Origin: Klebsiella phage vB_Kpn_K54_rec1
Strand: one strand, 5' to 3'
DNA length: 64,000 nucleotides
Sequence record: PQ569687.1
Below, piece after piece: positions 53,531-55,572 of the stretch. The translations under genes and the position numbers were made by a program. How positions within the stretch are numbered: position 1 is the stretch's first letter; each line of letters opens with the position of its first letter. The notes under the pieces were generated by a model. The model searched no databases and was not told where the DNA came from. It saw only the letters and a list, made by a program, of their open reading frames with translations.

Positions 53531-54584
53531 TATGTAAGCCACATCTCCTGAAGCTGGAGGATACAATCACCACCCCTGCGTGAAAGGTTGTACATCCTGT
53601 TAACACACAATCTGAAGTGACTTACCGATATGTCGATAAAACACCCTTTCATAAACACATTGCCGTAACGTGTCGATGCCATAAGCATGTCTGAAGTGGC
53701 CTCCGTTTTCTCCACATAACCACCCCCGCCCCCGTGGGGAAATCAAAACATGCCCCTGCCGAAAATATCACTTGCCGAAAATATCTGTCTGGGTGTTTTG
53801 GAGCATTCGTACTGTCTGAGGTGCTAGACGGACAGCTCCGGGCGTCAACTATCTTTACGGATCTTTACAAAATATCATGGGCAAGGTCGATCCGGTCCCC
53901 GGTCCCTCGGGGCCTCTTCAGGAATGAAAGTTACTTGCCGAAACTAATAATTATCAAATGTTACAGATAGCAAGCATATGGTTTGCCAGCTTAGAGCACG
54001 ATTTGTCATTGACAAGCTTATATTTATATGAATTACACCATTTAACATAAAACACGTTATACGAACTAGCTAACAACACATAGCAAGCTAATAATGCCCC
54101 AATGTTACCAGTGTGACGCATAGGCCAGCCGCTTCAGGTCATTACATGGTGTGACTGTTACTGTGGTGATAGTTTCATGTGTGATTATTCATGTTTTAGG
54201 GTTGTTTTGTGAATGAGATGAAGAATGAGAATCATTACTATTTCGATTTCGAATTCAATTTGGAAATGAGAATCATTCCGCAAATATAAATATTTTGTAA
54301 ATTTATAAATAAAAGCTTGACAAGGAGAGAGAATTGTGTTTAGCAATACATACTCTTTGAGCATCATTATCATTTGCGACTAATTCCCATCAACCCTTGC
54401 TACGCAAGGGATTGATAGATATTTTCGATAATAAAAACACTTGACAGTTTACACTTCTTCCATGCTCAAAATCAGGCCTTTCCATAGGCCATAGGCCCAC
54501 ATTAGCAAGTGATTTATTGCTATTTGTCAATCATTAAATTTCATTTAATCACATAATAATAACGGGTTGTTACCATCACCAGCG

Positions 54585-54783
54585 ACACAATAACACGGGA
54601 GCGATCACGCAGGGCGTGATCGGTGTTATCGTGGCGATGTGATAAAATAAGTTTGCTAATCATTACGGATGTAATGATCTTAATGATAACAATTTTCATT
54701 CGCTCTTAGGCGTCTACGAGCCACGATAACGCGAACGAAAATGATAAGGATTATCATTTGAGTTACTCCCGTGTTATTGTGTC
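54585..54783. repeat. perfect 18 bp inverted repeat (GACACAATAACACGGGAG / CTCCCGTGTTATTGTGTC) flanking about 165 bp with internal palindromes
   Basis: The internal palindromes CGATCACGC-AGG-GCGTGATCG and ATCATTAC-GGA-TGTAATGAT were read directly. Confidence 0.6.
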
Positions 54784-55572
54784 GCTCGCTACGCTCGCGC
54801 CACTCCCCACGATTACGCGAACGATTTTTATTTGACAAGATTTTATTTTTATGCTCAATAAAACCAGTTCACACAATAGGTTAGATGATAAAAGTTGGCA
54901 TTTGAGAGTGATTCTCACACTATGCATACATAATGCTTAAAAATGCATGTTTTATTCAGTTAATAACATGCGTTATTAATTGTTGGGGTTGTTAGGTAGG
55001 GCCATCCAGGGTAACGACGTCGATTAAATCGCCTTTGAAAACTGAAAGCGACCACATCGGATCATGATCTACTACGCCGCCAAAATCTTTACCTTTAACA
55101 GTAGAATTCAGATTGATGATAGTCATTTTCGTTTACCTCGTTAAGTTGATTTCGTTTGTTTGCCCTACGAGATAAATATTAATATAAGCGGGGATCGCTG
55201 TCAATAGCTCTTTACGTATCTTTACATTATTCACTTTTTGCATCTTTATGCATCGCTATGCAATTGATTTCATGGTGAAATTACTTTTTAGGCGTTTTCC
55301 CGTGTCAAGCTGTTTTTATATAGCCTTTAAACGTCCTGTAACTCGTTTTAAGAGATTTTTAGTCCAGGCTGTACCCTAGTCCATTTTATCGGAGATCTCG
55401 CCATATTCACTATTTTGCATAAGATTTTAGGCGTTGTTGAGAGTAATTCTCATTACCGGAATAGCGGGCACCTCCGGTGACTTTCCTCCGGTGTCCATCG
55501 TTGCCGCTTCAAACAAAGAATAGCAAAAACCAGGACCGAAAGCAAGCCCTGGAATTGTAAAGATTTTGCCTA

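Follow-up and report, generated by a model that had tools for sequence, protein, structure and literature searches.

What does a phage keep in about 2 kb of seemingly gene-free DNA, at the point where two blocks of genes run into each other? We addressed this question for Klebsiella phage vB_Kpn_K54_rec1, using a 64,000-nucleotide (nt) stretch of its sequence record (PQ569687.1; hereafter the window). The last gene of the plus-strand block ends at 53486 and the last gene of the minus-strand block at 55573, so that the convergence of gene blocks described in the initial annotation of this DNA is real. That annotation offered three candidates for the gap: a replication origin, a packaging or terminal-repeat junction, or a small-RNA locus. 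Comparison with related phages indicates that the gap is very probably the genome terminus, containing a direct terminal repeat (DTR) of 514 bp, and that a 206-nt element beyond the repeat, which we call the cloverleaf after its predicted four-way junction, is very probably a genuinely selected folded structure.

The genome ends were placed using three close relatives. For phage KPP-1, a 514-bp DTR was deduced from approximately two-fold read coverage at 116,316-116,829 together with PhageTerm, and packaging was assigned to the T7 type (PMC9862379). Over 54560-54830, KPP-1 and the window do not differ at any position (100% identity), and the KPP-1 repeat maps to 53827-54340. The repeat_region features at both ends of the phage DP record (1-514 and 145135-145648) map to the same interval in reverse orientation, and base 1 of the KP12 record falls exactly at 53827; the three terminus mappings have 93-98% identity. 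The termini of these near-identical phages show that 53827-54340 is the 514-bp DTR, with one copy per junction in replicating DNA, and the packaging or terminal-repeat junction among the earlier candidates is thereby borne out. The repeat is present once in this sequence, as in a concatemer or a collapsed assembly. Because the KPP-1, DP and KP12 termini all map to this interval, the left end can be read as 5'-GACGGACAGCTCC and the right end as ...GAGAATTGTGTT-3'; virion DNA would thus start at 53827 (5'-GACGGACAG) and end at 54340 (...AATTGTGTT).

Both cut sites, placed in this way, fall within conserved motifs: TCTGAnGTGyTA^GACGGACA and AATyGTGTT^TA(G/A)C (carets mark the genome ends) are kept in 15 phages. 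The layout and boundary motifs are common to Mydovirus-type phages and to rV5-type phages such as Gotham, for which terminal repeats of 459 bp have been reported (PMC7471380). The Gotham repeat, annotated at 1-459, maps inside the 2.6-kb non-coding gap of rV5, and its end motifs are homologous to those above: the left ends of Gotham and rV5 start with GGCGGACGG, and the Gotham counterpart of the right boundary motif is CTTGACAAAGAGGAGAAAAACTTGTC^TGAC. Eighteen records labelled 'Campylobacter phage' (host C. jejuni) have 92-93% identity to E. coli phage rV5 across the terminus region, which suggests mislabelled or contaminant rV5-like genomes in that series of submissions.

The repeat sits in a longer conserved module. 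The 2.3 kb around the gap is 98.9% identical to Klebsiella phages vB_Kpl_K54lambda1.1.1 and vB_Kpn_K54_rec6, and the gap region matches 65 records of Vequintavirinae-type myoviruses, whose hosts are Klebsiella, Salmonella, Cronobacter, Escherichia, Raoultella, Proteus, Enterobacter and Erwinia. Positions 53488-54995 are collinear with PVP-SE1, GAP31, 4MG, EspYZU15 and Csp-D17 at 68-80% identity, and an alignment of 15 phages has column conservation of 0.7-0.99 across the whole module, with several invariant boxes. The small genes beside the module in PVP-SE1 have no blastn match, whereas the module itself does; on these alignments the module is better conserved than the genes that adjoin it. 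Together with flanks of ~340 nt on the left and ~650 nt on the right, the DTR forms a gene-free mosaic of invariant boxes, namely two copies of palindromic AATGAGAATCATT, an AT-rich block, three copies of ATGCTCAAA and two of CACGATWACGCGAACGA.

Several observations indicate that this module is non-coding. Among the 15 open reading frames (ORFs) of at least 30 amino acids (aa) in 53480-55140, none was intact in five divergent relatives, where tblastn returned only fragments or stop-interrupted matches; no conserved ORF was found by this comparison in 53487-54991. The earlier statement that ~2 kb lacks a credible ORF therefore stands for 53487-54991 but not for the right quarter of the gap, which holds a plausible 44-aa gene. 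Curated annotations of PVP-SE1 and rV5 leave the homologous gap of 2.2-2.6 kb empty, and Fig. 2 of the rV5 paper draws it as a grey box labelled 'non-coding' (PMC3606486). Some automatic annotations put up to 12 small 'hypothetical proteins' across the gap, which we regard as spurious. In OY979426.1 and OY978796.1, a 'tail fiber protein' or a 1,500-nt pseudo 'terminase large subunit' is annotated over the non-coding terminus region; these annotations look offset or mis-transferred.

The module contains the cloverleaf, which starts 241 nt past the DTR and ~755 nt from the physical left end. Folded as RNA, it has a minimum free energy of -98.4 kcal/mol (z = -10.8); with DNA parameters the values are -63 kcal/mol and z = -11.8. 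In addition, 0 of 200 shuffles of 54575-54795 folded equally well; the palindromes and repeats of the initial annotation thus far exceed chance. The reverse strand folds nearly as strongly (z = -9.3). The palindromes picked out in the initial annotation are parts of this one folded object. The inverted repeat that it gave as an 18-bp perfect pair (54585/54766) is real and perfect, but each arm is 21 nt long and the pair forms the closing stem. Its AGG palindrome is the first hairpin, and its GGA palindrome is a hairpin with the loop GGAT in the variable arm.

Covariation supports the fold. In 17 of at least 62 homologous loci, pairing is canonical in 99.5% of 832 pair-cells (49 pairs), double compensatory changes occur in 16 of the 49 pairs, and RNAalifold agrees. 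In controls, 0 of 500 shuffles reached any of the five measures, and sliding the partners by 1-3 columns reduced pairing to 23-54%. The closing stems of the copies in Erwinia phages and in an uncultivated virus genome (UViG) have been rewritten at more than half of their positions and are still perfectly complementary. These alignments show that compensatory substitutions maintain the four helices. The loop-flanking GCGAACGA...TTGAGTTAC is invariant, like helix 3. Searched with a covariance model, each genome yields a single copy. Both a helix-covariation scan and sliding RNAalifold, run on both strands of the 1.5-kb module, returned only the cloverleaf and small local hairpins. When the window was scanned with Rfam 15, only tRNAs elsewhere passed the gathering thresholds; at permissive thresholds the best matches in the region had E values of 0.05-2.5, far below gathering scores.

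An element built on the same plan occurs in rV5 and Gotham at the corresponding position, starting 200-308 nt after the DTR, with an 18-bp perfect closing stem, nested hairpins and flanking direct repeats (z = -7.6). Its sequence is unrelated to that of the cloverleaf except for a short tail motif, TGTCGC...TCGCGCCA, spotted by eye, and neither a hidden Markov model nor the covariance model linked the two. The rV5-type element is near-invariant in eight Vequintavirus sequences, in which the flanks vary, and covariation is therefore uninformative there. Between the DTR and the structured element, rV5 also has a dense array (3975-4135) of ~10 ACTGTTTAC / ACTGTTCAC / TAGTTTACAC repeats, part of which are one mismatch off a DnaA box (TTWTNCACA); in the Klebsiella phage there is just one GTTTACAC, at 54447.

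The plus-strand TTGACA boxes of the region lie at 54009, 54317, 54441 and 54832. TTGACA is ~three-fold enriched in the 2-kb gap (7 vs ~2.1 expected from window-wide density). All four had been described as being followed ~17 nt later by a GCTCAAWA-like element. This holds for two, with GCTCAA 17 and 15 nt away; box 54317, which is part of the right DTR boundary motif, is followed by TTAGCAAT, and box 54009 by nothing similar. Boxes 54317, 54441 and 54832 are perfect -35 hexamers with no TAnnnT at 16-18 nt, and they fall outside the host-type promoters (TTGACA-N16-18-TAnnnT) that our scan detected, 24 of which occur in the 64-kb window vs 2.3 expected, all co-oriented with local genes. The distance from box to ATGCTCAA is 13-15 nt, and 68 nt in Mydo and Ro1, where a hairpin-module insertion of 53 nt at ~54848 splits box 54832 from ATGCTCAATA. 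We rejected TTGACA plus GCTCAAWA as a phage promoter class because it has only two instances in 64 kb, variable spacing and one pair split by an insertion; it also lacks a -10. ATGCTCAAA has three conserved copies in the region, one of them inverted, and none elsewhere in 64 kb, and it behaves as an independent motif.

Of the remaining motifs in Table 1, the two AATGAGAATCATT boxes near the right DTR boundary are candidate sites for a dimeric DNA-binding protein. The TCTTTAC(G/A) repeat of the box at 53859-53876 recurs at 55209. The initial annotation had listed CACGATWACGCGAACGA as a repeated motif, and it is indeed present twice, at 54722 and, within the tail of the cloverleaf, at 54808-54824, against 0.01 expected. 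An exact IHF consensus (54405-54417, minus strand) lies in the small hairpin 5' of the cloverleaf and is exact only in Mydovirus-type phages. The loop of that hairpin (~54397) has received a 66-nt insertion in 8 of 15 phages across genera, the loci listed with it being L002, L003, L005 (Mydo), L009, L012, L014 (NDO71) and L015; the insertion consists of three small hairpins, CCGG-ATA-CCGG, CAATGC-TAAA-GCATTG and AATAGTTAC-N5-GTAACTATT. In NDO71 and Mydo, a 54-nt hairpin module is inserted in the loop of cloverleaf hairpin 3 (~54748). Small palindromic modules seem to accumulate at loop positions of the terminus region.

Table 1. Sequence features of the terminus module and its borders (window coordinates; carets mark genome ends).
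Feature	Position	Strand	Remarks
Terminator-like hairpin closing the plus-strand gene block	53497-53521	+ (scores on - too)	11-bp stem, T-rich tail
Conserved non-coding segment by the right genome end	53487-53826		unique sequence just outside the DTR; 70-90% column conservation, no surviving ORF
Direct repeats TGCCGAAAATATC	53757 and 53773		inside segment 53487-53826
Left-terminus motif TCTGAGGTGCTA^GACGGACA	53815-53834	+	nearly invariant across genera
Direct terminal repeat, 514 bp	53827-54340		no ORF kept in relatives; mapped KPP-1, DP and KP12 termini
18-mer GGATCTTTACAAAATATC inside the DTR	53859-53876		invariant; 33 nt from left end; conservation 0.97
Palindromic box AATGAGAATCATT, two copies	54224-54236, 54265-54277		41 bp apart; flank TTTCGA repeats
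AT-rich stretch with invariant ATATTTTGTAAAT	54280-54316		highly conserved
Right DTR boundary motif CTTGACAAGGAGAGAGAATTGTGTT^TAGCAATA	54316-54348	+	virion right end 54340
Inverted ATGCTCAAA copy (plus-strand reading TTTGAGCAT)	54355-54363	-	invariant in 15 phages
Small conserved hairpin ATCAACCCTTGC-TAC-GCAAGGGATTGAT	54386-54418		compensated in GAP31 and 4MG
TTGACA box, then ATGCTCAAAA	54441-54471	+	spacer 13-15 nt in relatives; no TAnnnT -10
Cloverleaf, four-way junction of 206 nt	54581-54786	+	single copy
Cloverleaf closing stem	54581-54601 / 54766-54786		21 nt, 100% complementary
Cloverleaf hairpin 1, CGATCACGC-AGG-GCGTGATCG	54602-54622		
Cloverleaf helix 3, GTGTTATCGTGGC/GCCACGATAACGC	54623-54635 / 54720-54732		13 bp, invariant
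Variable arm, hairpin ATCATTAC-GGAT-GTAATGAT	54659-54678		enclosed by helix 3
Cloverleaf hairpin 3	54734-54764		invariant tandem GA/GA internal loop
3' tail of cloverleaf, CGCTACGCTCGCGCCACTCCCCACGATTACGCGAACGATTTTT	54787-54830	+	nearly invariant; weak terminator-like stem
TTGACA box, then ATGCTCAATA	54832-54860	+	invariant CAGTTCACACAAT after
Conserved hairpin TTAATAAC-ATGC-GTTATTAA	54961-54980		right edge of conserved module
Probable small gene, 44 aa	54992-55126	-	strong GAGG ribosome-binding site
Canonical promoter of the 44-aa gene, TTGACA-17-TAATAT	55204-55176	-	
Terminator-like hairpin closing the minus-strand gene block	55552-55530	-	

On balance, with a confidence somewhat better than even in the composite, we favor the reading that the region is a Vequintavirinae (Mydovirus-type) terminus module for T7/T5-style unit-length packaging with a short DTR, in which the cloverleaf would act in cis in end processing. 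Terminase, probably with its small subunit and possibly with IHF at 54405-54417, would assemble on the repeated boxes and cut at the two boundary motifs, and processing would duplicate the terminal repeat. Once the region becomes single-stranded, as displaced or lagging-strand DNA, or as a cruciform, the cloverleaf would fold, and it might then serve as a cis-acting loading, priming or resolution signal in completing, duplicating or replicating the left end. For the narrower proposition that the cloverleaf works as DNA, whether in the processing of ends, in packaging or in replication, we would put the chance at slightly less than even. Pointers to DNA rather than RNA are the small number of G.U pairs, the lack of an Rfam match and the outcome of a promoter and terminator scan, which found neither a TTGACA-N16-18-TAnnnT promoter facing the cloverleaf nor a convincing intrinsic terminator. 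It is conceivable, if rather doubtful, that the cloverleaf and its rV5-type counterpart make up a new class of structured nucleic acid, acting in cis or in trans, that is required for the formation or replication of DTR left ends in Vequintavirinae; such an element could be a hairpin or primosome signal by which the terminal repeat is duplicated, or a pRNA-like or decoy RNA made from the entering end.

Several points weigh against the favored reading. The termini of this phage are taken from relatives that are 97-100% identical and not from its own reads. PVP-SE1 and phiTE have been reported to be terminally redundant and circularly permuted, so that the record of DTR packaging covers Mydovirus- and Vequintavirus-type phages but does not extend to every genus with the module. 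The role proposed for the cloverleaf follows from no known mechanism, and three plus-strand TTGACA boxes with AT-rich upstream sequence lie in or around it. The stems themselves are almost purely Watson-Crick, with G.U in 24 of 832 cells and 16 of these in one column, but G.U occurs at four positions read on the plus strand vs one A.C, and one wobble inside the invariant helix 3 is kept in 16 of 17 sequences. Plus-strand G.U and the invariant GA/GA loop are suggestive of a plus-strand-specific form (RNA or single-stranded DNA), and more typical of a strand-specific RNA; this strand call is suggestive only, because it comes from ~5 substitution events. In the standard staggered-nick model of repeat duplication, moreover, nothing requires DNA 241 nt past the repeat to become single-stranded.

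These points lead to the most serious alternative, less probable than terminus processing in cis yet compatible with the DTR: that the cloverleaf is a non-coding RNA or processed leader, transcribed from the plus strand inward from the left end soon after DNA entry. Transcription might start at TTGACA boxes 54317 and/or 54441, with the 21-bp closing stem, which is RNase III-sized, releasing or stabilizing the product, and possible roles of the RNA in trans include those of a decoy or anti-defence molecule and of a packaging cofactor. In T7, three host promoters and an RNase III site are located immediately interior to the left repeat; the packaging RNA (pRNA) of phi29 is encoded near the left genome end. 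The covariation-supported structure and the strand features just described fit an RNA, as do perfect -35 hexamers that are conserved with their AT-rich upstream sequence across genera, and the weak stem followed by a T-run 3' of the cloverleaf in Mydovirus-type phages. The T-run is absent in Erwinia phages, however, the three boxes have no usable -10 (unlike the 24 canonical promoters), and the box-to-ATGCTCAA spacing is the irregular one given above. Very few G.U pairs, a strand call that is statistically not firm, and no Rfam match, including 6S, Y RNA and pRNA (the last assumed to be in the library), also count against an RNA, and we found no transcriptome for Vequintavirinae in the searchable literature. 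The small-RNA locus of the initial annotation thus retains a covariation-supported structure but has no canonical promoter, terminator or Rfam match.

We consider it unlikely that the module is or contains a lytic replication origin, a proposal that would accommodate either a DNA-level or an RNA role of the cloverleaf. The boxes would then be iterons, the AT-rich stretch an unwinding element and the cloverleaf a primosome- or primase-loading signal on the lagging-strand template of a rightward fork. Consistent with this, 54001-55000 is the lowest-GC kilobase of the window (GC 0.36), the AT-rich block is conserved amid repeated and palindromic boxes, rV5 has its array of ACTGTTTAC-type repeats between DTR and structured element, the fold is the same with DNA parameters, and these phages encode a T7 gp4-like primase-helicase (PMC3606486). 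Yet the region lies between convergent transcription units, not at a promoter-rich divergent point, no initiator gene was identified, and DnaA boxes are absent in consensus form and at background level with one mismatch (6 vs 3.8 expected, unpaired); nor was any clustering of GATC found in the region. The GC-skew inflection that had been suggested as a check exists, as a peak of the cumulative skew near 53 kb, but it coincides with the switch in transcription direction and is therefore uninformative about an origin; the rV5 paper likewise judged GC skew to be confounded by gene orientation (PMC3606486). Still less probable is control of DNA entry in the manner of the T5 injection-stop signal (iss), arresting or pacing transfer until early functions act. 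Vequintavirinae and T5-like phages are both sensitive to an early-acting DNA intercalator, but the paired DnaA boxes of the T5 signal are absent, and there is no conserved ORF between the left end and the cloverleaf, so that transfer halted there would not yet have brought in any pre-early genes. The idea that the gap has no function, being made of decayed or unannotated small genes or of an inserted miniature inverted-repeat mobile element, is largely refuted and merits almost no credence. The automatically annotated small proteins and the 21-bp terminal inverted repeats of the cloverleaf might be cited for it; against it, no ORF is kept in divergent relatives, the region outlasts the adjoining genes in conservation, the internal helices of the cloverleaf co-vary, and the element occurs once per genome, always at the same position and without a flanking target duplication.

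The right quarter of the gap (~55000-55570) lies outside the conserved module. The 44-aa ORF at its edge is 69% conserved in phage 4MG, at a different position there, and is probably a real small gene. The second repeat listed in the initial annotation, CCTCCGGTG, is present twice here, at 55471 and 55485 (0.28 expected); the tandem repeat (55471-55493) lies inside a 49-aa minus-strand ORF (55427-55576) in this variable part, and the 4MG homologue of the stretch is elsewhere, beyond other genes; the repeat does not belong to the terminus module. At the other side of the window, a 13-gene tRNA cluster occupies 1-6737 on the minus strand (ARAGORN and Rfam agree; Lys, Ser x2, Gln, Glu, Gly, Ile, Tyr, Cys, Leu, Thr, Met x2), with tRNA-Lys reaching the window edge. 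The 24 canonical promoters, of which those at 19877-19904 (+) and 61510-61539 (-) are examples, often begin TTGACAA, and the phage seems to depend to a large extent on the host sigma-70 polymerase in unmodified form. The phiTE pseudo-ToxI locus, which encodes an antitoxin-mimic RNA, was considered as a homologue of the region and rejected: it lies beside tRNAs and terminase, in a different region, and there are no ToxI-like 36-nt repeats here. A scan of 185,579 genomes with an invariant 16-mer, for a host origin or wider distribution, gave only chance-level matches in unrelated taxa; for 596 Gb of sequence, a query of this length was too short to be a good choice.

In close relatives, the DTR has been described before. 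To our knowledge, what is new within the searchable literature is that the rV5-like 'non-coding' gap is a terminus module, together with its base-level motif map and the covariation-supported cloverleaf. According to a 2026 review, cos and headful packaging are better understood than the way in which phages with exact DTRs recognize, cut and duplicate their ends. The ends of therapeutically used Klebsiella, Salmonella and E. coli phages are now placed in a compact conserved module with candidate signals at base level, all of them mutable: a motif at each of the two cut sites, repeated boxes of three families and a 206-nt folded element that may help explain how such ends are made. Automatic annotation fills this module with spurious proteins, and the start of many GenBank records is arbitrary; knowledge of the true ends and of the non-coding status helps annotation, genome engineering and the construction of packaging-competent vectors. 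If the cloverleaf is an RNA, it would represent a new phage non-coding RNA family, and if the new structured class exists, it would provide the first sequence-defined handle on the making of short exact terminal repeats in a large myovirus.

Among known systems, the closest packaging class is the T7/T3 type, to which PhageTerm assigned KPP-1. T7 and T3 ends are processed from a concatemer junction with flanking packaging signals, and their left ends carry host promoters and an RNase III site. Short exact DTRs with fixed ends are common to both systems (514 bp here, 160 bp in T7), as are conserved gene-free sequence flanking the repeat on both sides and, immediately interior to the left repeat, boxes with a perfect -35 and a large hairpin structure; a 'hairpin end' was reportedly put forward by Chung et al. 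in 1990 as a possible processing intermediate on T7 concatemers. In contrast to T7, this phage is a ~145-kb myovirus without a phage RNA polymerase, and the polymerase-dependent junction signals of T7 therefore cannot apply. Its left-end boxes have no -10 elements, its genes converge on the terminus whereas T7-type genes run inward, and T7 is not known to have anything like the 206-nt four-way junction.

The closest formal analogue is the iss region of T5, a 1,662-bp conserved non-coding region with repeats and palindromes that straddles the inner DTR boundary (bioRxiv 10.1101/866236). Here too a conserved non-coding region of more than 1.5 kb with repeats, inverted repeats and palindromes lies at the inner boundary of a terminal repeat. 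The T5 repeat, however, is ~10 kb long and carries pre-early genes, whereas that described here is 514 bp long and has none; the eight paired DnaA boxes of T5 are absent, there is no sequence similarity, and the folding of the T5 elements is not known to have the covariation support of the cloverleaf.

Single features recall other systems. At lambda cosB, terminase-loading sites lie beside the cut site, and the repeated boxes with one exact IHF consensus on one side of a cut site seem similar in arrangement, although lambda has cohesive ends in place of a DTR and the IHF match is exact only in Mydovirus-type phages. The cloverleaf differs from phi29 pRNA in its four-way junction topology, in the terminase-type packaging of its phage and in having no Rfam match, but both are structured elements of ~170-200 nt less than 1 kb from the left end of a linear genome, with sequences that diverge among relatives while the design is kept. 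Finally, although the cloverleaf lies 755-960 nt from the physical end, with no Rep-type nickase and no sequence similarity, it may be likened, by analogy only, to the inverted terminal repeat hairpins of parvoviruses such as adeno-associated virus and to plasmid and G4-type single-strand initiation signals: these have nested palindromes that form branched hairpins in single-stranded DNA and are cis signals for priming or end replication, as the cloverleaf might be, and the predicted cloverleaf fold is as strong in DNA as in RNA.

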